The position numbers were made by a program, and so were the translations under genes. From Promethearchaeota archaeon (GTDB lineage Archaea > Asgardarchaeota > Lokiarchaeia > Sigyniarchaeales > SOKP01), in contig JAEOTS010000134.1 in the NCBI GenBank assembly GCA_016839745.1, positions 1-23,898 on the forward strand: a DNA stretch of 23,898 bases, written 5' to 3'. The notes under the pieces were generated by a model. The model ran no database searches and had not been told where the DNA came from. It was given only the letters and a program-made list of their open reading frames with translations. How positions within the stretch are numbered: the stretch's first letter is position 1; each line of letters starts with the position of its first letter. Positions 39 to 12,919 of the stretch are shown here, piece after piece.

Positions 39-1010
39 TTAGAAATACAAATTTGAAGGCTCAAGGATATTCGGAAAATAAGGACGAAGATAATTCCGCG
101 CGCTAAAACAAACATGGCATTTGTCTGCATATCCACTTAATGGTTCATATCCTTTTTCAATTGCCATTTCAAGGAGATTTTGCGGCCCTCCCTTAGCTAC
201 TACTTTGCCTATGATTGGATGTTTTCTATAATTGAATTCACTCATAATTTGAGATAGACTTTTTTCCTTGGCATTCCCGATGCAAATTCCATGACAAGAA
301 TGATGAAAAACCCATCCATTAGGATCTATCATAAACATCGGAATTTTAAAAACAAGACATCTTTCTGAATTTATTACTGTCGTAGAGAAATAATTTGTAA
401 GTTCGTTTGCCGCTCTACCCATTACATTTAACTCACTATTGATTTGGTGGAAAAATTCAAACTCTTTTGAAAGCTCACCAGTCATTGCTTTAGTTTTTTC
501 GTTAAAAACATTCTTTTCATCTTGACTTCCTAAGTATTGTGATAACACAGCTATCCATTCAATTCCTGCTTCATGTGCAGCTTTTATCGCTCGTTTTACG
601 ATATCTAGTGACACAAATTCTTGATGAAATGCATCAACACTAAAACTAATGCGAAAAAGTCCCGCTTTTTTTAATTTTTGGGCATATTCCTTGGCTGTAG
701 ACTCATTATTTCCCCAAAAACCATTCGTAGGTAAACCTATCTTTGAAATATCAAATCTATTCACTTCTTCAATAAGGCTAACTAGCAGATCGAAATTTAG
801 AAGGGGTTCTCCACCAAAAAAGCCAACTTCATCAATCTTATAATTGGAAGTTATGTCCTGCAGATATCTTTTAACATCCTCTAATTCTATTGTAATTTTG
901 TCTTGATTTGGAGATCCTCGAAGAGCACAATGCTTGCATTCATTAGTGCATTTATAAGATATTAGGAAACTTAAGAAAGGGATTTTTTTTAGAATTTCTT
1001 CAGTAGTCAT
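39..1010 (-). CDS. Radical SAM protein with Cys-containing C-terminal (SPASM/twitch-like) extension
   Basis: CxxxCxxC motif (CTNECKHC), GGEP, PTNGFW, SFSVDAFHQ; extra Cys in the C-terminus (RCLV, SCHGICIGN, DKCHVC). Confidence 0.9.
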   Translation of the reverse strand: MTTEEILKKIPFLSFLISYKCTNECKHCALRGSPNQDKITIELEDVKRYLQDITSNYKIDEVGFFGGEPLLNFDLLVSLIEEVNRFDISKIGLPTNGFWGNNESTAKEYAQKLKKAGLFRISFSVDAFHQEFVSLDIVKRAIKAAHEAGIEWIAVLSQYLGSQDEKNVFNEKTKAMTGELSKEFEFFHQINSELNVMGRAANELTNYFSTTVINSERCLVFKIPMFMIDPNGWVFHHSCHGICIGNAKEKSLSQIMSEFNYRKHPIIGKVVAKGGPQNLLEMAIEKGYEPLSGYADKCHVCFSARNYLRPYFPNILEPSNLYF

Positions 1011-1089
1011 ATTTTTATCAACCCACTTTTAAATTTAAAATTATGCTAGGTTGAATAGAAAAATGAAATAAAAATAGAAATATTAATTT

Positions 1090-1713
1090 TTAGATAAAAG
1101 GTTGTCTTATAACAGTTTTCATGGTTGCAGGATTAGCTTTCCTCGGATCACTTAGATAAATTTCATGGTGTTTATTTTGGTGGCCATCGAATTTACCACC
1201 TTCTTTCTGAATAAGATCATGAACCTTCTGGACCGTAGGACCCTCCTCTGAATAAGGACCAATATGCATAATCTGAGCTGCTTTTCCTTCTTTATATTTT
1301 TCTAATCGGAGTTCTGGAAGAAGGTTTGAAAGTTCAGGTTTCTTTTCCTTGGTAATAGCTATAGCTTCATTAATCATATCTTGGGTAATCCAATCAGGTT
1401 GCATAATCATCATTGTCCATTTCCACTTATCTCTATTACCTTCGATAAAGTCTTTCATATCATCTGCCCACCACAAACCTTCCAAAGGAGGCACTACATA
1501 ATCTTTCCCTTTTGCTTTGCTTAAGAATTTTGTTTTGAATGATATAGGATATAAAGCAGCGAGAGCATCTTGATATTCTTTTGAATCTCCAGGAGACCCC
1601 ATTCCATCAATCATTAGGAACTGCATTTCAGGTACGTTAACTAACACAACTTCATTTGGTTTGGGTTGATAATATTCCTTCATACTTTTCTTGAAGTCTA
1701 CTTTAGTTGACAT
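1090..1713 (-). CDS. GyrI-like small-molecule-binding domain protein
   Basis: Typical motifs FLMIDGxGxP, VVPPLEGLWW, WKWTMMIMQP, HIGPYSEE, HHEIYLSDPRK; GTGA RBS upstream. Confidence 0.9.
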   Translation of the reverse strand: MSTKVDFKKSMKEYYQPKPNEVVLVNVPEMQFLMIDGMGSPGDSKEYQDALAALYPISFKTKFLSKAKGKDYVVPPLEGLWWADDMKDFIEGNRDKWKWTMMIMQPDWITQDMINEAIAITKEKKPELSNLLPELRLEKYKEGKAAQIMHIGPYSEEGPTVQKVHDLIQKEGGKFDGHQNKHHEIYLSDPRKANPATMKTVIRQPFI

Positions 1714-1741: not shown

Positions 1742-2296
1742 TTAAGGAATTACTAATATACCAATGAAATCAAGCACTATGAAGATTAAGCAGATTATCT
1801 CCATTAGTGTCCAAAGATTTCGCTTTAAACTCCTCAAACCTCTCCATACTTTTCCAGAATAGCTTATAAAATTGTAAATTATAATTATAATCCATGCGGT
1901 CAAAAGAAATGCTATTGGTAAGATCAAAACATAAACCTCTCGTCCCATAAAATCTAAGAGATATTTATAACCCAAGATAGAAAACGCGTTAATGACCAGA
2001 GTAAAACCGAATCCGAACGAATACTCTGCAAAGGTAACAAAATTTCTAATTTTATTTTCTGATATCTTCCCCACTTTGGCCTCAAAATTAGCTCTAGAAT
2101 TAGACGAGACGGAATTGACGAAAAACACAAACGAAAGCATTAGTAAGAACGTGATGCTGACAATACCTGTGGAAGGACGCGCTTGCCAAATTAAAGCGAG
2201 GATTGTTAAGACCGCAGCAATCATAGTCGTGCTAAGAACAATCCAGTCTCGAACATTTAAATTTTTAGCATTGTTATTTTGTTCCATAATATTCAC
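1742..2296 (-). CDS. Hypothetical integral membrane protein (about 5-6 TM segments)
   Basis: Several hydrophobic segments; co-oriented and closely spaced with the two genes downstream. Start may be GTG 2296 or ATG 2287. Confidence 0.75.
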   Translation of the reverse strand: MNIMEQNNNAKNLNVRDWIVLSTTMIAAVLTILALIWQARPSTGIVSITFLLMLSFVFFVNSVSSNSRANFEAKVGKISENKIRNFVTFAEYSFGFGFTLVINAFSILGYKYLLDFMGREVYVLILPIAFLLTAWIIIIIYNFISYSGKVWRGLRSLKRNLWTLMEIICLIFIVLDFIGILVIP

Positions 2297-2467
2297 TAAA
2301 AACTTCGATTAATATTTAATTTTCTCTTTTATATCAAAATATAGAAAATCTAAGCAAATTCTGATATTTGCACTATTTGTTCATCTAATTGTTCAATCAA
2401 TAATTCACTAAACATAACATAAATTTATAAATAATCATTTCAATTGATCATATGGAGGTAATTTATT

Positions 2468-3430
2468 ATGGAAATCATGAATGAAAAAGATAGAAAAAAA
2501 ATGATCGTAGATTCGCACAAATTTGGAGGTATAAGTCTAAGGCGTCAAATGTTAAGAGTACACAAGAATGGGGCTAAATTTCCTATAAGTAAAGCTTATA
2601 TTGATGACGAACTTCTTGATCCTGATGTGTCTTATACTCTCATTTTAATCCCTGAAGCTAAACTCGCTACAAAAACTACTGTTTCATTAACTTTCTTTAA
2701 AAGGAGAAGTGGACCTCATATATTCTACTCATTTCCAGAGGATGTTCTTAATAATTTAGAAAAAGAAAGTATCGGTGAAATAATGATTCAAGCTTCTAAA
2801 GAAAGATTCTTTATCAATCAATCAAGCATTATATCTTCCGCAAATTATTATTTTGAACTCTACTCTGATTGGGCTCGTGGAAATAAAGAAATGGTAATGA
2901 TTAGTGTAAGCTTAGATAGGAAAATTAATCAAGCGATTGAAGAAATAATTCAATCTTTCTGCACTGATTTTGAATCACAATTAAATGCTACTCAAGATAT
3001 TTTCAAAGCTTTATACATAAATGACCTAGATTCAATTTCTGAAGAAGAACACGCATATATAAAAAGATTTAACGAAGATTTGAAAGGCAATTTAAGAGAA
3101 TTCTATAAAAAAATAGAAATCTTGCTACATCAAAGAAATTCGAAACATGAAATAACCGTGTCATTGGAGATTGAAAAAAAGTTGGACTTGAGTCAAATCG
3201 CTCAAAAAATCGAAGGTGCTGAGTTTAATCCAGAGAAATTTCCCGGGTTGATTATAAAAAACCAGAACCCAAGCGCTACAATCATCTTATTTTCTAAAGG
3301 TAAAATGGTGATAACTGGTTTGAAAAGAACTTCTGAAGCAAAACAAATTGTCGATAAAGTCATTAATGAAATCAGGGAAATAGGTATAAGCCTAGCGAAC
3401 CCAAAAATTTCGATTGAAAGTATCAAATAA
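2468..3430 (+). CDS. Multidomain protein: small N-terminal domain, putative longin/uDENN-like domain, and a single C-terminal TATA-binding protein (TBP) repeat
   Basis: Residues ~227-320 (LDLSQIA..AEFNPEKFPGLII..ATIILFSKGKMVITG) match one TBP repeat. The middle region (FFKRRSGPHIFYSFP..YFELYSDWARGNKEMVMIS) resembles Asgard longin-like domains (recalled, not searched). GGAGGT RBS at ~2454-2459; TATA-like TTTATAAA at ~2424. Confidence 0.85.
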   Translation: MEIMNEKDRKKMIVDSHKFGGISLRRQMLRVHKNGAKFPISKAYIDDELLDPDVSYTLILIPEAKLATKTTVSLTFFKRRSGPHIFYSFPEDVLNNLEKESIGEIMIQASKERFFINQSSIISSANYYFELYSDWARGNKEMVMISVSLDRKINQAIEEIIQSFCTDFESQLNATQDIFKALYINDLDSISEEEHAYIKRFNEDLKGNLREFYKKIEILLHQRNSKHEITVSLEIEKKLDLSQIAQKIEGAEFNPEKFPGLIIKNQNPSATIILFSKGKMVITGLKRTSEAKQIVDKVINEIREIGISLANPKISIESIK

Positions 3431-3831: not shown

Positions 3832-6800
3832 TTATACTGCAACTTCAGTAAGGTAAAGAACAACTAATAACAGAGCCCAAATAATCGTTAGGATTATTAA
3901 AATTATTGTTGTATAAAACCTCCACTTGATTGAAATCTTCTGTTTTTTCTCGATTCTATATATATAAATTGCCAATATTGCTCCTAATATAATTATGGAA
4001 GAAAGTATCAGAATTATACCAAAAAGAAAAGATTCAATGTAAGGTATTATTAATGCGAACACAAAAACTGTAAAACTTATCCAAAGAGTTATAAAACGTT
4101 GCATTCTATTCTTAAAAATCTTATCTATGTCGTCAGTTTTCTTGGGTGGGAGTAAAGAAATAAAAATTCCAGAATTTGCTAATGCTAATAGGGTTGCATG
4201 ATCCCCTCCTAGCAAAGGTATTAAACCAATTTCTTTAGAAAAAACTATTCCCACTGTTATACCCGCAAACACACAAAGAATAATTTCTATAACTCTAAGG
4301 TTATTTTTTAAGAAATTGATAAATGAATAATATACTCTTAGAAGAGAATTCTTTAGCTTGACATATATCAATCTTAAATTGTCTAGTATATTATTGAAGA
4401 AAGCCTTCAATTCTTCCAGCATAAAAACAAATAGGTATAACCAAATTCCTATAAAAATCCATGAGAAACTCCATCCAGATAATGATATATTAAAAGTAAT
4501 TATGCTTAACAACAAGAACAAAACGAGAGAATAGAGGAAAGAGCTAATTTTCTTACGTTTAAATGGTTTAAATAACGCTAAATTTATAATCATAAAGAAT
4601 AACAAAGAAAGGCTAAGATTAAGAATTAAATTGGGATTTACAAAGATTTCTAATGCTAAAAATATATCAAAAGATAATAAAACTTCAGTTAGAATGAAAC
4701 TAACAATCCTTAGATTCTTCCTAATCTTTTCAGTTACAGATTTAATGTTGTTGTCTAAGAATGTCAATCCAAGTAAAATAATAAATGACAAAAGAACTAA
4801 GTTTAGCGAAATAAAGAAATCAAGGCTAAGATAATATAATGGCCAAGTAATTAAATTAAGATAAACTAATCTCACAAGTGAATCTTTAATTTTAGATTGG
4901 TTTGACTTGATAAAATCCCAATCTTTCAATAATCTAAATAGGTAGGCGATTTGTATTATTAGGAGAAATATAATTATCGGTATTATCTGAACAAAGAATA
5001 TGGAAATCCAATCAAGATAGAATAAGAATGAAAATCCAATTAAAATTATCCACGAAAAGCTTATAAAGAAATTCGAGGCCTTTCCTAAAAACTTTAAAGC
5101 ATATTTATCAAATAACGCTAGTAAATGTGTGGTCAGGCTTAAAATCAAGACAATTAAATGAAATTCAAACCCAAAAAGTACTAAAGTATTGAGAATGCTA
5201 CCTAAAAGTAGAAAATAGACACCCCATCCTAATATATTCTGTCTTAAATTCTTCCATTTTTCAAATGAAGTCAATTTATCAGGATTAAACTTCCGCCTAA
5301 TATCGAAATATGAATAATTCGTGTAAAATTGCATTAAAATCGTTAAAAACGCTATTAAAACTAGAGAAAGCATAGAATCACTAAATATCCTATATAAAAT
5401 TATAAAAAGGATCCAAGAGATATTGATAAAACTAAAAGTATGAACTATTTCCATATATCCTTCCTTAAGACGCTTAATAGCATAAATTTCTAATATGCTT
5501 ATCAAGAATAACACAATCTGGGAAAACAATAAGCTTTCATAGAGGGCAAAGAATAACTGAAATAAGCCTAAAAACAAAAGAGAGGCTTCTAGATAAATGC
5601 TAAATATAATAAAAGAATAAATTTGCTTTATATTTTTCTTCCATTTCTCACTTCTAGTGAGTTTTCCTGAAAGATAAATTGTATAAGATGTGAAAATCGT
5701 TTCAGATAATAAAACTAAGATAATCCTGAATAAATCAAGAAGACTAAATATAGTGAAAAAAGATACCCAAAATACCGCAAAAAAGATTTGAAAGAAAATA
5801 AAGGCGCACAATAAAATACTTTTTTTAAGTTTGATTTCGATAGTACGATTTATTAATCCGTTTAGTACTAGCATCAATAAAGAAAAAATCATTCCAGAGA
5901 AACTTAATGAAGGATACCCATCTAATAATGGATTATATGTTATTAATAAACTACTTAACAATAATGAAATATATAAGCTAACCACGATGAAAATTGAATT
6001 TAATAGAATGTTCTGTATCTGGTTTCTAACTTTCCTTATTTTACTCGCTTCATATTGAGTTAATTTTTCAATGTAATAAGAGAGAGCATAGAGCGTATAA
6101 AATTGTAAAATCAAGAGTATAACTAGATTTAGTACTAATAAAGATGCATCTATCGCGATAAACTGGTTCAAAAACACGAATAGACTAATGGAAGTAATTA
6201 CATACGCTATTAAATTAAAAGCATATATGATTTTTTCGTTAACCTTCTTTATAAGGTGGATTTCGAATAAGGTTGAGATAAAAAATATTATTATGGAAAT
6301 TAAAACTGTTTCAAAGAAGCCAAAATCCACAGCTTCACTAATCAAACTAAAACTCAGAAGTCCAATCTCAAAATGTAATAACAATGAGAGAACCGATTCA
6401 GCTCTAAGCAAACCAAAACCTTTAAGATCCTCTTGAATTTTAACTTTTTTACTATACAACTTACATGGAATTTGGAATAAGGCAGTATAAAGTATCAAAG
6501 ATAATAAAATTATAATAACCGGAGATTGAAATAAAAGATTTAACACCATAAATTGTAAAACTATTAAGATTATTGGAATTGGAAAGGCATACCACAATAT
6601 AAATCGGTATTCGTAGAGTATTGATCTTAGTAAAATTGAATTTACTAAGATAAAAACAGCAATTGCTAAGTAAATAAAGCCAGGTAGGAAATAGTATGTT
6701 AAATAAGAAAGCGTTAAAGATACACCAAGTGATAGAATCGTTAAGGGAATTATTTTTTTTATCGGGATAATCATCCTAAACTTGTTAAATACGAAAAGAG

Positions 6801-9800
6801 AGCCCCCAAATACCGCTATCGCTAGAAATATTGAAAAAAGTTCGAGACCAGGAATCATAATAAGTGTGAAATAAGTGAACAAAGAGAAGTTTATAACCAG
6901 TATTGTGGAGATTAAGGTATTAAAAAAAGTCTTGTTGAGTTTGAGGAGTCTTGATGAAAATAAACTCAAAGCAAGTGTTATAAAAGCAATATTTATTGAT
7001 ATAGGTAAATTTTTGATTATCGCATTTATAATGCTAAAAATTGTAAGAAAAATTCCAACTAAAGAAATAAAATAAGATCCTACGAGAATTATGTTTTTGA
7101 TGTTCTTAAGATTAGGGAAAAATGACAAAATGAGAAAGAATATACCTAATATTATTAGATTGATTGATAAATTAATCTCTAGCGGTAGAAGGATTGCAGA
7201 GAATAAAGTGAAGAGGAAAGTAATGTTTACAACTATATAGAATAACCAAAGAATAGTTATAATCTTCCATAATCTTAATCGATAAATTATTGGTACTAGC
7301 AAAGAAATAGCGAAAACGACAAACACGATATTGGTTATCAGCACATTATTACTAAACACGTTTTGACTAAACCAATATAAGAAAAACAAACTGAAACTCC
7401 AAACTATTATGAGTACTTGAGAAAAATGCTTTTTAATCCACGAATACCAAAATGGTAATGAAAGTAGTATACAAATTACAAAGGATATTATGAAAGAGCC
7501 ATTAATGCTTAGTATGTCAAAGAAATTTAGAGCATTCGTATAAATATTGACATTTGTAAATATCTCATTAATGAGATAGAAATTAACAAAAGGGACTAAT
7601 ATCCAAAGTCTCCAACCAGTTTTCCAAATTGCCCAGGAAAACTTCCAGTAATAAATTCCGATTGATATGTAAAATAGAGCTATTCCAATATTAATCGTTA
7701 TTAAAAACAAGAAGGTATCCCATAATGGCAGAGAAAGTAGAGCATTTAAGAAGAAATACATAAACACAGGAAAAGAAATTGTGTAAATTGAAAATGCGAT
7801 ATAAAAGCTTATTTTTCTGAACTTTTCAGGTGTTTTATTGTATGTTCCTACATAGGCAATCCCTGTAATGGTTGAAGTTAATGTGAAAGTTAGTATTGGA
7901 TTAAAGTTCATAAAGATAGGGTTATTAAAGAGGATAAAATAGGATAGATAACTCATAAAACTAAAAGTTAGTAGTAGTACGCATGGTCTAATAAACCATT
8001 TATAGCGCTCATCTTTTTGTCTATAGAAAAAATTTCCAGTTAATATTAGGAATATAAATAAAGAAATTGATATGTTGTAAATCAAAGGTATACCTGTATT
8101 TATAATTAATAACAAAAGCGAGGTTATGGAGATTAAAGCGTATAGCGTAAATTTTTCGACCACATTTGTTTTCTTCATGTTGAATACGATTGATAAAAAT
8201 AATACTAAAATCATAGAAAAACCATAAATGAAAAAATAAACTGTGAAATAAGAAAAACTAAATGTGGGAATTAGCATATAGAGATTTAATGTGAAAATCG
8301 CTTTAACAAATATAAACCAACTAAGAGAGATATAAAATATTATACGAAATATAAAATTGCGATTCCTATTAGATATAAATAAGAAAAGCGGCATTAAGAA
8401 GAGTATATAAGAAAAGTATTCGAAAATAATTGGAAATATAGAAAAAAGAGAAAATAAAACCAGTAATGAACCGCTGAATATTTTTATCATTCTAAATTCT
8501 GATGCTCTTTCAATTATAGTATCAAATTTAAGTATATAGTAATTAAGAAACAGATATATAGCACATAGTACAAGTATGATTTGGAGTGCCTGATTCGAAC
8601 TAAAAAATGGAATATTGGAAGAAAATATCCAGAATAAATCAACAAAAATAATTATTAAAGCTAAAGAAAAAAGATAGAAAGTGAGTTTCTTAGATAATCT
8701 CAATGACTCATCAGAAATGGAAAATATCCTTCTTAAATAATAAATAGTAATCGGGCTCATAAAGATGATGATTAGAAGTGGTAATACTAACCTTAAAAGG
8801 ATAGAAATTTGAATAGGCAGAATAAAAATATAAAGAATAATAAGCAATTTAATAAAAATCCAAGCTGAAATTTCGAAAATACTTTTAATTTTTAAGAAAT
8901 CTACTTTAAATAAATATCCACAAACTGCTGAAATGATTAGATATATCGACATGAATATACCTAAATTAGTAATTGTAATTAAGAGTAAAGATTCTGGAAG
9001 ATACAATAGAGAGAGTAAGCTATGAGACGGTATTATTAGTGCTAAAATAGCAGCTATAGAAGTTATAATGGCAAAAAAAGAGATATTCTTGGTGTACTCG
9101 TATATTTTATAGATTTTATAATAATCAAATTTACTTACATCGTATTCGAAAATTCTTTGTTTTAGGTTTTCTAGCAGAATTAAAATGGCAAGGTTTATAA
9201 TGAAAAAAGTCAGACAAGAACAACTTATATTTAGCCAAAAATTGGTTGTTATAGAATCTATTAAACTATAAACCTTTAAGGCAATAAGCACAGATATCGT
9301 TATCCAGATAACAATCTGGGAGGTTTTAAGAGAAACAATACGATTTTCTTTGAGCTTATATTTATCAAAAAGAAATTCCAAGAATCTCAAAAATCCAAAA
9401 AATAAAAATATTGTAGTAAGGATTATGAAATAATAATCAATAACCATTCCAAATCTGATTAGCTCCAATCCTATTATAGTTGGAAGGGACATAATTAACG
9501 CAGATATTAACAGACTATCTACCAATAACATTTTTTCTACAAGTTTACTGAAAACCTTCTTGCTTGAGGAATAAAACAATGGAAGTAGCATTAGTAAGCT
9601 AAAAACTAACAGAGGAATAACAAATACAAGAACCGAGTTATTAGTTAATAAATATATGTAGTAAGAGCTTAGAACGCTTGTAAAACTTAAAGCTAAGATA
9701 TTAATCCCAATTGCACTCTTATCTGAAAAAATTATTCTATTTTTAGATAAAATATTGATGATAAAGCAAATTAGAATAGTCGAGAAGTACGCTGATAAAA

Positions 9801-11970
9801 CGGGCTCTATTAGAATTAGAAAAATTGAAAACAAAATGGCATAAACTTCTAAAATTATAAAGATATTGACCATAATAGAATACTTTTTAAAAGATTCACC
9901 TGATAGTAGGTTTAATTTTGCTCCAAACTTAAAAATATAATAAGAAACCACGGTAATAAAAAGAATATTAATCAAAATTAACACAATTAAAAAGAAATTA
10001 AAGAAATTAAAAATAACAAAAAAATTCAAGGCGAATATAGCCAGAGATATAAGAATAGAGCAATAAAAATGATATTTTAAGAAAGTAATAGGATTTAAAA
10101 CAGTTTTTTTTGACAAATAAAAAATAGGAATGTATGAAAGAATGCAAACAATAATAAGGGGTATGAAATAAATAAAGAAAGTTCCAACTGTGAAGATAAC
10201 GCTATAATATCCGGCAATAAATATACCAAAATAAAATGTGATTGTGTTTAGAATCATTGCCGGAAATTTAGGAAATAATTTTTCTTCCCTTGATGATATG
10301 TGAAAAATAATGCTAATTATAGATAGTGATAAGAAAGACGATATGAACTCATCTAAAGGAAGAAAAGTGGTAAAAACAGTAAAAAGCAGGACAAAAATTT
10401 CTATTATGATAGGATAACTTAATATGTTTAAGATAAACTTCGAGGACGATTCTTTTAACCGATTTATTTTCTTGCCAAACAAGATGAGAAGAACAAGACA
10501 AAATGTAAAGAATAGAATGTTTAATAGCGTTCCTAATATGAAATCGGCACTAAAATATATGTTAATGATAAAAAAGTTTAAAACAAAAATTAAAACCATT
10601 AGCACCCATGAGGAAGTGTAGCTATATAATGCTAGAACTTTAGGTTTTATGACATTCTCCTTATAGAGATAATACAATGGGGCATATAATAAAAAGCAGA
10701 AAATAACAGGAACAACAAGATAAAAATAGAAATAGTCAATATTAGCTTCTATAAAATAAAATCCAACAACATATATGTCAAATGCGAAAATGAAAGATGT
10801 TAATATTAATTTCATTTTTCTTGAAATTAATTTCTCGTACGGAGATAAGAGATTAAAAATCACTCCAATAATAGAAAGTGAAAGAAATATAGCAATAACC
10901 GGGTTAAATATAAAAACTATATTGAAAATTCCATAAAATAAGAAGAAAATTTCAAGCAAAAGAGCATAAAAATATATTTTAGCGATATTTAAGAAGGTAT
11001 TTTCTTCGATTTTTTTTATTACAGTTCCAAATTTTAGGTTTAATAGCGATAAAATCGTAAAAAAGATTAAATCAAATAATAAGATTACATAAGTATTCCA
11101 ATAAAGGGCTATTATTATAAGGAACATGGAGGAAATTAAAAACCAGAAAGTAACATAGGTGTAAGATAAACTTACTTCACGAGAGAATACTTTTATAATG
11201 TAATTTAATAATACAAATGATAGAAAAGCAGCTGAAATTAAAATCGTTGATAAAAATAAATCTCTTTGCAATAATTCAGGAACACCCAAAACGATATTTT
11301 TTAAGTTAACTAGTATAAACCAGTTCAATTCAATTAACAAAAATACGAATATTACGCAAAAATTAAAAAATCTCCAAGGTTTTGCATATAAATGAGCTCG
11401 TGCGTATAAGAAATAAAACGAAATTAATGTAATTATCAAAACAATAATTGAATGGATCAAAGTTTCAGAAATTAAAATCAAAATTGGATCTAATGTAAAA
11501 TTAATGTATACGAATTCAACAAGTGGAAAGAACGAATATAAAATTATGGTAAAACTAGTAACTGCAAGAATATTTTGTATGACAAGAACATTTTTCTCTA
11601 TAAAATAGCCTAGTTTCATAAAAATTTGAAAAATGAAATATAGAGATATACTAAAAATTATAAATTGTATATTAATGAGCGTTATTCCAAGGTAAGTTGG
11701 GGATATCCAAAATGCCACTAAAGCTAAGATTACTAAGCAATTAATCAGATATATATATCTACTATAAACTTTAAGAGTAAAATTCAATTTTTCTTCGATG
11801 TATGTAATAATGAACATTACTGGTAAGGAAAGGAAAAATACAACCAGAGTATTATTCAACAGAGAAATTAAGAGAGTTGCTAGAATTAAAAGAACCGAGA
11901 CAACGAAATTTAGCTTTTGATAGCTTCTATTATTCTCTAGATCAACTTCTTCAGAATTACTCGAATTCAT
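3832..11970 (-). CDS. Giant polytopic membrane protein (~2,710 aa) with internal TM repeats, function unknown
   Basis: 8.1-kb open frame, hydrophobic over almost its whole length with short Lys-rich loops. ATG 11970 (MNSSNSEE) follows a GAGG RBS and overlaps the end of the upstream gene; the track's longest start is 12000. Confidence 0.9.
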   Translation of the reverse strand: MNSSNSEEVDLENNRSYQKLNFVVSVLLILATLLISLLNNTLVVFFLSLPVMFIITYIEEKLNFTLKVYSRYIYLINCLVILALVAFWISPTYLGITLINIQFIIFSISLYFIFQIFMKLGYFIEKNVLVIQNILAVTSFTIILYSFFPLVEFVYINFTLDPILILISETLIHSIIVLIITLISFYFLYARAHLYAKPWRFFNFCVIFVFLLIELNWFILVNLKNIVLGVPELLQRDLFLSTILISAAFLSFVLLNYIIKVFSREVSLSYTYVTFWFLISSMFLIIIALYWNTYVILLFDLIFFTILSLLNLKFGTVIKKIEENTFLNIAKIYFYALLLEIFFLFYGIFNIVFIFNPVIAIFLSLSIIGVIFNLLSPYEKLISRKMKLILTSFIFAFDIYVVGFYFIEANIDYFYFYLVVPVIFCFLLYAPLYYLYKENVIKPKVLALYSYTSSWVLMVLIFVLNFFIINIYFSADFILGTLLNILFFTFCLVLLILFGKKINRLKESSSKFILNILSYPIIIEIFVLLFTVFTTFLPLDEFISSFLSLSIISIIFHISSREEKLFPKFPAMILNTITFYFGIFIAGYYSVIFTVGTFFIYFIPLIIVCILSYIPIFYLSKKTVLNPITFLKYHFYCSILISLAIFALNFFVIFNFFNFFLIVLILINILFITVVSYYIFKFGAKLNLLSGESFKKYSIMVNIFIILEVYAILFSIFLILIEPVLSAYFSTILICFIINILSKNRIIFSDKSAIGINILALSFTSVLSSYYIYLLTNNSVLVFVIPLLVFSLLMLLPLFYSSSKKVFSKLVEKMLLVDSLLISALIMSLPTIIGLELIRFGMVIDYYFIILTTIFLFFGFLRFLEFLFDKYKLKENRIVSLKTSQIVIWITISVLIALKVYSLIDSITTNFWLNISCSCLTFFIINLAILILLENLKQRIFEYDVSKFDYYKIYKIYEYTKNISFFAIITSIAAILALIIPSHSLLSLLYLPESLLLITITNLGIFMSIYLIISAVCGYLFKVDFLKIKSIFEISAWIFIKLLIILYIFILPIQISILLRLVLPLLIIIFMSPITIYYLRRIFSISDESLRLSKKLTFYLFSLALIIIFVDLFWIFSSNIPFFSSNQALQIILVLCAIYLFLNYYILKFDTIIERASEFRMIKIFSGSLLVLFSLFSIFPIIFEYFSYILFLMPLFLFISNRNRNFIFRIIFYISLSWFIFVKAIFTLNLYMLIPTFSFSYFTVYFFIYGFSMILVLFLSIVFNMKKTNVVEKFTLYALISITSLLLLIINTGIPLIYNISISLFIFLILTGNFFYRQKDERYKWFIRPCVLLLTFSFMSYLSYFILFNNPIFMNFNPILTFTLTSTITGIAYVGTYNKTPEKFRKISFYIAFSIYTISFPVFMYFFLNALLSLPLWDTFLFLITINIGIALFYISIGIYYWKFSWAIWKTGWRLWILVPFVNFYLINEIFTNVNIYTNALNFFDILSINGSFIISFVICILLSLPFWYSWIKKHFSQVLIIVWSFSLFFLYWFSQNVFSNNVLITNIVFVVFAISLLVPIIYRLRLWKIITILWLFYIVVNITFLFTLFSAILLPLEINLSINLIILGIFFLILSFFPNLKNIKNIILVGSYFISLVGIFLTIFSIINAIIKNLPISINIAFITLALSLFSSRLLKLNKTFFNTLISTILVINFSLFTYFTLIMIPGLELFSIFLAIAVFGGSLFVFNKFRMIIPIKKIIPLTILSLGVSLTLSYLTYYFLPGFIYLAIAVFILVNSILLRSILYEYRFILWYAFPIPIILIVLQFMVLNLLFQSPVIIILLSLILYTALFQIPCKLYSKKVKIQEDLKGFGLLRAESVLSLLLHFEIGLLSFSLISEAVDFGFFETVLISIIIFFISTLFEIHLIKKVNEKIIYAFNLIAYVITSISLFVFLNQFIAIDASLLVLNLVILLILQFYTLYALSYYIEKLTQYEASKIRKVRNQIQNILLNSIFIVVSLYISLLLSSLLITYNPLLDGYPSLSFSGMIFSLLMLVLNGLINRTIEIKLKKSILLCAFIFFQIFFAVFWVSFFTIFSLLDLFRIILVLLSETIFTSYTIYLSGKLTRSEKWKKNIKQIYSFIIFSIYLEASLLFLGLFQLFFALYESLLFSQIVLFLISILEIYAIKRLKEGYMEIVHTFSFINISWILFIILYRIFSDSMLSLVLIAFLTILMQFYTNYSYFDIRRKFNPDKLTSFEKWKNLRQNILGWGVYFLLLGSILNTLVLFGFEFHLIVLILSLTTHLLALFDKYALKFLGKASNFFISFSWIILIGFSFLFYLDWISIFFVQIIPIIIFLLIIQIAYLFRLLKDWDFIKSNQSKIKDSLVRLVYLNLITWPLYYLSLDFFISLNLVLLSFIILLGLTFLDNNIKSVTEKIRKNLRIVSFILTEVLLSFDIFLALEIFVNPNLILNLSLSLLFFMIINLALFKPFKRKKISSFLYSLVLFLLLSIITFNISLSGWSFSWIFIGIWLYLFVFMLEELKAFFNNILDNLRLIYVKLKNSLLRVYYSFINFLKNNLRVIEIILCVFAGITVGIVFSKEIGLIPLLGGDHATLLALANSGIFISLLPPKKTDDIDKIFKNRMQRFITLWISFTVFVFALIIPYIESFLFGIILILSSIIILGAILAIYIYRIEKKQKISIKWRFYTTIILIILTIIWALLLVVLYLTEVAV

Positions 11971-12919
11971 CAATTTCAAACCTCTTGAGTATTTTGTCAT
12001 AAAATGTACTTACATACAATCTGATTTTGAAGTAGAATAATAAGAAGATGAGAGATAATATCGAAATAGTAATGATTTCAATAATCTGATGTTGAATACC
12101 CGAGTAAATATAAATAAAGGTTATTACTAATGGCATTTGAATCAATAATGCGAACATTAAGCTTAATAATGAATTTACAAACTTTCTCTTATATTTAGTC
12201 AACTCCAATAGAAATTCTTTGCTATTTTTAGTTAACTTTGATAAATTCTTTATGTTTTTCATAGTTGTAAGTCGGGAAATAAGATAAAATACTAAATTCG
12301 AAATAAGTGGAAACAACCAAGAAACTTTAGTATAGAATGTATAAGAGAGAAATATGATATGAATGATATAATTGACAATAACTATGAGATTATATGGTTG
12401 TTTAATCCATTGAGAAAATGGTGTTTCATGTTTGTATTTCTCTTCATTATAGTCAAAATTGTCTATAGGTTGAAAGAAATAGTAATAATACACAATATTG
12501 TAAAGTATGCTAAATGATATTAAAGGTAAAAGCTCAAATTTTTTACTTGGAGTAAAAAAAACAAAAATAGGAGGAGGGAAAATAATGAAAATAGGAGTAA
12601 CTATCAAAGCTAAGATCGTAATTAAGAAAATAATATTAATTCTAGCAGATAGGTTGTTTTTTTTATTCAAGAAAAATGGATTATTTCTATATTTATCAAA
12701 AGGTTTGTAGAAAAACAATAATACGAACATGAATGTTATAACTGATAAACCAATTGAGACATAAAGGTCTTTTCCAATAAAGAAATAAATGAAAAAACCT
12801 ACTACAGCGACTAAAGAAGGTACTATGATTAAATAGAAACTAAACCACCAAATCTTCCAGAGCGATTCGGTGACTTTTTCAATTTTATCTTCAGAACTTC
12901 CGTTTTTATTAGATTTCAT
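11957..12919 (-). CDS. Hypothetical integral membrane protein (about 8 TM), first gene of a putative operon with the giant membrane protein
   Basis: Multiple hydrophobic segments; the 3' end overlaps the start of the giant ORF. Confidence 0.8.
   Translation of the reverse strand: MKSNKNGSSEDKIEKVTESLWKIWWFSFYLIIVPSLVAVVGFFIYFFIGKDLYVSIGLSVITFMFVLLFFYKPFDKYRNNPFFLNKKNNLSARINIIFLITILALIVTPIFIIFPPPIFVFFTPSKKFELLPLISFSILYNIVYYYYFFQPIDNFDYNEEKYKHETPFSQWIKQPYNLIVIVNYIIHIIFLSYTFYTKVSWLFPLISNLVFYLISRLTTMKNIKNLSKLTKNSKEFLLELTKYKRKFVNSLLSLMFALLIQMPLVITFIYIYSGIQHQIIEIITISILSLIFLLFYFKIRLYVSTFYDKILKRFEIDEFE

Follow-up and report, generated by a model that had tools for sequence, protein, structure and literature searches.

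What half of a general transcription factor might do when it is joined to a domain of the kind seen in regulators of small GTPases is the question raised by a single gene of a Promethearchaeota archaeon (Lokiarchaeia; Sigyniarchaeales; SOKP01). The gene lies on contig JAEOTS010000134.1 of assembly GCA_016839745.1, of which positions 1 to 23,898 were analyzed as one stretch, here called the window, and it occupies 2468..3430 of the plus strand as an uninterrupted open reading frame for 320 residues with 0 internal stops, ending in TAA at 3428–3430. The ATG at 2477 is a possible alternative start, and in two related loci (L012 and L013) this second ATG is the only start available. A first-pass annotation of the DNA had described half of a TATA-binding protein (TBP) fused to a putative longin domain behind an N-terminal hairpin module, and had proposed a regulator that couples GTPase-type signaling to basal transcription; the observation is confirmed, and the interpretation is supported in part. 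The gene is real and conserved, and its product consists of a basic N-terminal module, a folliculin-type longin domain and one TBP lobe. Our preferred reading, which we hold tentatively, is that the protein is a modular, probably dimeric, autoregulated and GTPase-linked transcription factor with the half-TBP as an added grip on the TATA box. Our literature search found no paper describing a fusion of a longin with a TBP domain: single TBP-domain proteins (PMC3597702) and Asgard longins of the type found in GTPase-activating proteins (GAPs; PMC12290439) are already known, and it is their fusion that is new to the literature searched.

The AlphaFold2 model, built from 86 sequences, has a predicted local distance difference test score (pLDDT) of 82 and a predicted template modeling score (pTM) of 0.69. 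Residues 1–67 (2468..2668, plus strand) form the N-terminal module, a candidate sequence-specific DNA-binding and dimerization module that is basic and the most conserved part of the protein. The longin domain (residues 68 to ~190) and a long C-terminal helix (residues 192–220) follow at 2669..3133 of the plus strand, as delimited by the model and its fold matches. The half-TBP, comprising TBP repeat 1, the inter-repeat linker and strand S1′, covers residues 226–320 (3143..3427, plus strand) by Pfam, VIA structural search and hidden Markov model (HMM), with S1′ itself at residues 310–318 (3395–3421, plus strand).

The single TBP repeat with both phenylalanines that the first-pass annotation had reported is borne out. 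Pfam PF00352 covers residues 229–304 as a single repeat (E 6e-20; 71.3 bits, where the cut-off is 22.9). The NCBIfam TBP models align to residues 228–319, mostly with profile positions 10–104, that is, repeat 1 and the linker, and score 73 bits, far under their cut-offs of 181–347. The protein therefore has one TBP stretch only, where a canonical TBP has two repeats. Residues 226–319 of the model superpose on residues 69–160 of yeast TBP (7o4i_O) with a Z score of 15.6 and a root-mean-square deviation (RMSD) of 1.3 Å over 92 residues, and the lobe matches the Sulfolobus acidocaldarius TBP with Z 13.9; TBP matches overall span Z 13.9–15.6 and RMSD 1.3–1.4 Å by VIA. The first DNA-kinking phenylalanine, Phe258 (FPG; 3239..3241, plus strand), is present in 100% of 34 fused proteins, and the second, Phe275 (LFS; 3290..3292, plus strand), is Phe in 97% and otherwise Tyr. 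Other residues of the DNA face are kept to a similar degree (K264 97%, K279 97%, V/M281, T283 94%), with the phosphate-binding arginine of TBP changed to lysine at K264. The roles assigned here are those of the yeast and archaeal TBP–DNA structures, where F99, F116, R105, K120, V122 and T124 of yeast TBP belong to the DNA face and N69 and N159 are the central asparagines that read the minor groove. The retained residues fit a lobe that still lies on DNA and is able to kink it, without a TBP-like reading of the center of the TATA box. Compared with archaeal TBPs (1MP9, 1AIS/1PCZ, 2Z8U and the genome's own TBP), the lobe has the same fold and clear sequence homology and keeps the Phe pair, the basic residues and Thr283; unlike them, the window protein has one lobe, ends after S1′, has both central asparagines replaced, lacks the C-terminal stirrup, and carries its lobe fused behind two unrelated modules.

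The half-TBP derives from the N-terminal repeat of a TBP of the same lineage. Its stirrup is of the N-repeat type N-P-E-K(-F-P-G) rather than the C-repeat type E-P-E-V, so the TFB-facing stirrup is absent; in the C-repeat, E-P-E-V/L-F-P-G is the stirrup that contacts TFB, as in 1AIS. An HMM of the half-TBP scores the N-repeats of same-genus TBPs at 114–129 bits and their C-repeats at 46–52 bits. The phylogeny against canonical TBP that the first-pass annotation had called for gives the same answer: in a tree of 176 repeats, every half falls in a 56-row set with 39 N-repeats and 0 C-repeats, at a value of 96 in the Shimodaira–Hasegawa-like approximate likelihood ratio test (SH-aLRT). The protein does stop at PKISIESIK, as described, although this stop lies just inside repeat 2 and not at its exact start: the end ...NPKISIESIK corresponds in the alignment to the TBP linker plus the first strand of repeat 2, S1′, where canonical TBP reads NPEITIQNI, and it superposes up to yeast residue 160, and the module is therefore best described as a TBP gene cut just inside repeat 2. 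These comparisons indicate that the lobe was captured from repeat 1 of the TBP that this lineage itself encodes, and that it is a recent capture rather than an ancient single-lobe protein. Proteins with one TBP domain are known in other archaea, namely halobacterial TbpA, reported to be functional but not essential, and euryarchaeal single-TBP-domain groups (Brindefalk et al. 2013, PMC3597702). The window protein resembles these TbpA-type proteins in having a single TBP-fold domain outside a two-lobed TBP; it differs in that they are stand-alone and euryarchaeal (PMC3597702), whereas it has three modules and a lobe nested among Lokiarchaeal TBP N-repeats.

The middle domain is longin-like, as the first-pass annotation had supposed from a resemblance to longin/uDENN domains. 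In the model, residues 68–222 adopt the secondary structure b-b-a-b-b-b-a-a (DSSP) at pLDDT >90 and end in a 29-residue helix, and a VIA structural search matches more than 30 longin chains at Z 7–13 covering this whole region. The best of these come from GAP complexes: 6nzd_H of the lysosomal folliculin complex (Z 13.1, RMSD 2.5 Å, 136 residues), 8fw5_B of a GATOR1 chimera (Z 12.0) and 8adl_S of the SEA complex (Z 11.2) stand ~3–4 Z units above generic longins, those of adaptors, SNAREs and TRAPP falling at Z 7–9.4. From the chain ranges, we take 6nzd_H to be FLCN and 8fw5_B to be NPRL2. The Lst4 longin (4zy8, Z 10.6), C9orf72–SMCR8 (7o2w_A, Z 10.2) and a dimeric Lokiarchaeal longin (8yqg_B, Z 10.2) also match, and Foldseek on the model retrieves GATOR1 (9o5d_D) at E 8e-4 and TBPs at E 1e-7.

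Two short motifs add to the fold. Gly82-Pro83 (2711..2716, plus strand), at the start of longin strand 2, which begins at residue 82 of the model, is invariant in the alignment of the fused family (A1). Arg137 (2876..2878, plus strand) lies in a W-A-R-G loop between longin strands 4 and 5; no member of the fused family departs from it, and its conservation is at least 90% in a wider longin alignment (A4). In that alignment, which includes longin-only paralogues, G82-P83 and R137 are both invariant or nearly so. A 2025 survey describes a motif of this kind, GP beside an arginine finger where strand 2 begins, as specific to GAP-type longins and shared by some Asgard longins (PMC12290439), and the position of G82-P83 fits that description. 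Arg137 is a candidate arginine finger and a candidate equivalent of FLCN R164. The GAP-type longins of folliculin, NPRL2 and SMCR8/C9orf72, together with the Asgard longins termed FLCN/SMCR8-type (Traffic 2025, PMC12290439), are the best fold matches; the window protein shares their GP motif and has, in the loop between strands 4 and 5, the conserved Arg137 as a candidate for their arginine finger. Unlike them, the window protein has no DENN or other such C-terminal domain and is fused to promoter-related modules; its GAP activity, its GTPase and its partner subunit are predictions from fold and motifs. Within the text of PMC12290439 on Asgard longins, "TBP" occurs 0 times and fusion to promoter-related modules is not mentioned.

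The N-terminal module exists, as had been proposed, and it is the most conserved part of the protein. It carries a net charge of +7 over residues 1–45, and its identity across fused and unfused relatives is 60–100%, compared with 36–88% for the longin part. The idea that it forms an AbrB-type swapped hairpin, in contrast, is not supported. By eye, a strand–turn–strand–short-helix pattern around 'RVHKNGAKFPISKAYIDDELL' recalls AbrB, SpoVT and MazE, and the only local hhalign match to AbrB domains falls in the 'RVHKNGAKFPISKAYIDDELL' register; however, Pfam searched up to E 10 gives no match for residues 1–67, PF04014 scanned across 13 genomes finds other genes and not this one, and hhalign against 25 Lokiarchaeal AbrB domains gives a probability of 0.1%, the query alignment being shallow (Neff, the effective number of sequences, 1.8). 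The module has a pLDDT of 53–75 in the full-length model and 66 when folded alone, and the isolated model, a monomer only, shows no swapped-hairpin or other structural match. Its folding may require a partner chain or DNA. An ESM Atlas search with the module gave no usable match.

The promoter of the gene contains an array of direct repeats with a period of ~12 bp, one slot of which is taken by the TATA box. Two TGTTCA hexamers, candidate operator half-sites (2378..2383 and 2390..2395, plus strand), are followed in 12-bp phase by a degenerate third repeat, AATTCA (2402..2407, plus strand), which is kept in the close fused loci L009–L011 and weaker elsewhere. The TATA box TTTATAAATA (2424..2433, plus strand) comes ~44 nt before the start codon, an ATTTCA half-site lies just 3′ of it (2437..2442, plus strand), roughly in phase with the repeats, and a Shine–Dalgarno-like GGAGGT (2454..2459, plus strand) stands 8 nt before the ATG, with GGTG/AGGT at the matching position in related loci. 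Across 18 promoters from fused and unfused lineages whose proteins are 43–93% identical (alignment A5), the first hexamer is invariant and the second is so at five of its six positions, although the mean column identity is only 58%. The TATA box is conserved in the same alignment, and a motif scan finds a TATA-like motif near −44 in 22 of 29 related loci. A GTTCA pair 11–12 bp apart accompanies the N-terminal module, being present in 27–28 of 29 promoters of genes that encode the module versus 0 of 44 promoters of longin paralogues without it, counts that come from related genomes, are not independent, and so overstate independence. The simplest reading is that the TGTTCA array is an autoregulatory operator read by the N-terminal module.

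The position of the remaining half-sites varies with the form of the gene. ATTTCA is found at −30/−31 in 8 of 8 fused loci scanned (the window and L009–L015) and in L037, and most unfused loci (L017–L023, L026–L028, L031–L033 and L035) carry at −8 a further GTTCA that overlaps with the ribosome-binding region; L037, which has lost the lobe, has both ATTTCA at −30 and GTTCA at −8. Elsewhere in the genome, exact TGTTCA-N5-7-TGTTCA occurs 3 times versus 2 in the control, the other two matches lying inside coding regions, and the looser GTTCA-N6-7-GTTCA has 14 matches in 3.5 Mb, about the level expected by chance, of which 2 are intergenic and one is the promoter in the window. The other intergenic pair, GTTCA-N6-GTTCA at C192:994–1009 (minus strand), precedes a flavin-reductase-like gene, with ATTATAAAAA immediately after the pair. 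It may mark a second target, or it may be coincidence, given that the genome-wide count is at chance level.

The same architecture was sought in other genomes, as the first-pass annotation had advised. A search of 5.8 billion proteins retrieves ~57 clusters of 316–324 residues with full-length members 56–92% identical to the window protein, all from metagenome bins labeled Lokiarchaeota or Promethearchaeota, as well as more than 60 clusters of ~220 residues that hold the first two thirds only and no TBP domain. Among species-representative genomes, the fused form is present in 8 others and the short form in ~20. The junction near 3140, which had been flagged for checking, is the same in those 8 species-level genomes and in the ~57 clusters; because it recurs across independent assemblies, it is not an assembly chimera. 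A sample of 151 genomes of the order yielded the fused form solely within the window's genus, in 9 of its 42 genomes. The short form was present in another 13 genomes of the same genus, in 8 of 53 from a sister genus and in 1 of another family, each genome carrying one form or the other. The ~220-residue form without TBP is the older and wider one.

A tree of the shared part places all 34 fused proteins in one 43-row clade, the other 43 rows all being unfused. Inside that clade, the lobe has been lost secondarily in six full-length short proteins, and three further short rows (229–241 residues, two with a partial TBP match) look like fragments. The tree thus indicates that the fusion arose once and was later lost in some members; within 5 kb of the unfused ~220-residue genes, we find neither a TBP remnant nor a split-off half-TBP gene. 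Pairwise ratios of non-synonymous to synonymous substitution (dN/dS, Nei–Gojobori) are 0–0.12 for residues 1–67, 0.13–0.26 for residues 68–222 and 0.07–0.24 for the half-TBP, and by these values the junction is genuine and all three parts are under purifying selection, which meets the challenge that the first-pass annotation had itself set as a refutation. The suggestion of a recent lineage-specific chimera stands in part: the fusion was found in a single genus only, some members of which have lost it again, yet it is conserved and under purifying selection.

Half-TBPs are not confined to this family. When the lobe was scored against 1.84 billion representatives, it matched mostly two-lobed TBPs, together with several single-lobe proteins. 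The proposed link between half-TBP and small GTPases is supported by an independent family of Promethearchaeota metagenome proteins (P0255 and its relatives P0270–P0279; 505–510 residues; 11 clusters, 51–100% identity), which joins a half-TBP to a Ras-family GTPase (E 4e-37) and a MarR/HTH_24 winged helix. Its half-TBP, residues 7–84, ends ...NPEITLERVK, and two relatives of 397–403 residues (P0280 and P0281) are without the TBP lobe, the same pattern of an optional add-on as in the longin family. Two genomes of the window's genus further encode Lrp/AsnC-like proteins of 416 and 428 residues (L118:1718–2968 and L119:1142–2428, both plus strand), in which an Lrp/AsnC-like N-terminal half is followed by one TBP repeat (matched by Pfam at E 5e-21 and 1e-18) and then by HTH_24 and an AsnC ligand-binding domain. 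The half-TBP is on this showing a reusable accessory of transcription-factor-like proteins in the lineage, twice joined to GTPase-related modules, in support of the broad proposal of the first-pass annotation that GTPase signaling is coupled to promoters. We also count the proposed regulatory role tied to promoter DNA as supported. The same search returned a stand-alone half-TBP of 104 residues (P0261), which, like the complete GTPase fusion, ends shortly after the linker, inside repeat 2. It also returned TBP-like proteins with three and four repeats (P0122, 272 residues; P0123, 376 residues), which are gene predictions and possibly assembly products.

In the mechanism that we propose, the basic N-terminal module would bind the TGTTCA array, so that the protein controls its own promoter and perhaps that of the divergent membrane-protein gene upstream. 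The folliculin/NPRL2-type longin would dimerize and would either bind a small GTPase or act as its GAP through the GP motif and Arg137, with the state of the GTPase serving as the signal input. The half-TBP would be a later and optional addition, in which the Phe pair is retained together with the basic and Thr residues of the DNA face. It would rest against the minor groove of the AT-rich TATA segment, which falls in phase with the repeats, thereby strengthening the binding and most likely denying the promoter to the cell's TBP, with repression as the outcome. Such a protein would be like the autoregulated archaeal Lrp/AsnC-type factors in outline, with a sensor or oligomerization domain, a DNA-binding module and phased sites around its own TATA box, and an Lrp/AsnC-type protein of the same genus carries the same half-TBP. 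It would be unlike them in that no helix–turn–helix (HTH) is detectable in the window protein and the sensor is a longin of the GTPase-regulator type, not a small-molecule-binding RAM domain.

Several points weigh against this reading, beginning with the relatedness of the promoters counted above. DNA binding by the N-terminal module or by the lobe is a prediction. The module has no recognizable fold, with no Pfam match and no fold match at Z 2 or more, and for that reason a different protein could bind the TGTTCA sites. Apart from the window promoter, the genome yields no sign of a wider regulon marked by the TGTTCA pair, the repeat pair being at chance level elsewhere. In the lobe, the central asparagine of S1 is replaced by K226 (97% K) and that of S1′ by S318 (78% S), positions mapped from the HMM alignment and the VIA ranges 226–319 onto 69–160, and the remainder of strand S1 is variable in the fused proteins. 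On the side of the longin, no longin was matched at E up to 10 when profiles A2 and A4 were run with hmmsearch on all PDB sequences; since profile searches do not reach FLCN or NPRL2, the assignment is by fold and motif only, and the kinship with FLCN, NPRL2 and SMCR8 would be carried by the fold and the two short motifs. Finally, no GTPase gene consistently adjoins the fused-clade loci.

Among the alternatives, the one that survives best, though we consider it unlikely, takes up the symmetric homodimeric saddle of the first-pass annotation: dimerization through the longin and N-terminal modules would bring two half-TBPs together as a TBP-like saddle on the TATA box. Such a saddle would bind and bend TATA and replace or compete with TBP at selected promoters, under the control of a GTPase. 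It would account for the conservation of both phenylalanines and most residues of the DNA face and for the TATA box inside the repeat array. Longins of this type act as dimers, the closest matches here being from heterodimeric GAP complexes and the dimeric Lokiarchaeal 8yqg, and the long helix of residues 192–220 runs straight into the lobe. The geometry speaks against it: because each lobe carries an extra S1′ strand, the ten strands of the TBP sheet could not be rebuilt from two copies; a symmetric but wider sheet is conceivable. The central Asn pair is lost, and with both lobes of the N type and no TFB-facing E-P-E-V, recruitment of RNA polymerase would be unlikely. The lobe has, moreover, been lost again in some lineages. 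The more specific proposal of a direct GTPase-to-promoter switch, in which the longin dimer forms this symmetric saddle and the nucleotide state of the GTPase gates it at the GP/Arg pocket, strikes us as distinctly improbable.

We give slightly less credence than to the saddle itself to the view that the protein is mainly a GTPase regulator, with the longin as a GAP or scaffold and the half-TBP and N-terminal module serving only as tethers to chromatin or protein, without control of transcription. Both the FLCN/NPRL2-type fold with its GP and Arg motifs and the abundance of longin paralogues in these genomes would suit such a protein. Its difficulty is that the promoter repeats track the N-terminal module specifically, that this module is basic and the most strongly constrained part of the protein, and that the sibling half-TBP proteins have bona fide DNA-binding domains (HTH_24/AsnC and MarR).

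The first-pass annotation had also offered a decoy. In this case the half-TBP would bind TFB, TFE or, through its concave face, the cell's TBP, and so titrate or recruit the basal machinery. The concave face of TBP takes part in TBP dimers and in contacts with DNA-mimicking inhibitors, the title of entry 1VOK describes a TBP dimer, and a conserved exposed phenylalanine could equally serve a protein interface. The stirrup is nevertheless of the N-repeat type N-P-E-K and not the C-repeat type E-P-E-V, which disfavors a TFB decoy in particular, and basic residues of the DNA face have been kept or added (K226, K264 and K279), so we regard a decoy or adaptor as very improbable. The possibility that the gene is an assembly chimera or a decaying recent fusion without function, which its restriction to one genus and its loss in some members might suggest, we reject as negligible in view of the junction shared by many independent assemblies, the absence of frameshifts and stops, and the low dN/dS of the lobe (0.07–0.24).

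TBP is thought to go back to a single lobe that acted as a homodimer and was then duplicated; we know of no study of a natural TBP-derived single lobe. A half-TBP lobe under selection inside a regulator makes the single-lobe question testable with one recombinant protein. The protein also joins two Asgard themes that have been treated separately, the eukaryote-like small-GTPase regulators represented by folliculin/GATOR1-type longins and the basal transcription machinery. Eukaryotic folliculin controls transcription factors indirectly, via Rag GTPases; a longin of the same type seated at a promoter would connect the state of a GTPase to transcription far more directly. The half-TBPs in Lrp-type and GTPase–winged-helix proteins suggest in addition that a TATA-directed accessory domain is a general building block of regulators in Lokiarchaeia. 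If the GTPase-gated saddle were true, the protein would amount to a naturally occurring homodimeric "TBP," a secondary return to the ancestral state that has long been postulated, and to an archaeal counterpart of the eukaryotic folliculin–Rag control of transcription, and the Lrp-type and GTPase–winged-helix half-TBP proteins would belong to a wider Lokiarchaeal toolkit of TATA-targeted regulators.

Around the gene, some neighbors are kept in 8–10 loci of the fused clade: a divergent membrane protein of 181–184 residues, a GyrI-like protein and a convergent giant membrane protein. The divergent gene (1742..2296, minus strand) encodes in the window a 184-residue membrane protein without a Pfam match; it shares a 171-bp intergenic region with the fused gene, is syntenic in 10 fused-clade loci, and may share the operator. 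The GyrI-like protein is encoded at 1090–1713 (minus strand), and the convergent gene at 3832–12000 (minus strand) encodes a polytopic membrane protein of 2722 residues. None of the kept neighbors is informative for function. Near the unfused gene, a small Ras-like GTPase gene recurs on the minus strand 3.3–5.5 kb downstream in 8 loci (L018 and L029–L035), which may be plain synteny among close relatives.

The genome's only canonical TBP gene lies on contig C72 (L001:2–433, minus strand), where it is cut by the contig end, and a gene for a 176-residue Rab/Ras-like small GTPase (612–1142, minus strand) is directly upstream of it on the same strand. Most genomes with the fused gene (G000, G012, G014 and G015) have one TBP plus the half, and several genomes of the genus (G002:C136, G004:C60 and G008:C9) have two full TBP genes in tandem, with up to three TBP genes per genome. 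The window's genome also encodes two longin paralogues, one of 386 residues on contig C47 (L005:778–1938, minus strand) and one of 286 residues on contig C43 (L006:45–905, plus strand). In both, the protein starts directly with the longin domain, the F-H/N-R/K-K-I-G-P and S-D-W-A-R-G motifs are present, and the C-terminal extension is helical and has no Pfam match. An atlas search with the 386-residue paralogue matched only Promethearchaeota clusters without names, and most of the Lokiarchaeal genomes searched, Promethearchaeum syntrophicum MK-D1 (L083) among them, contain relatives of this paralogue group.

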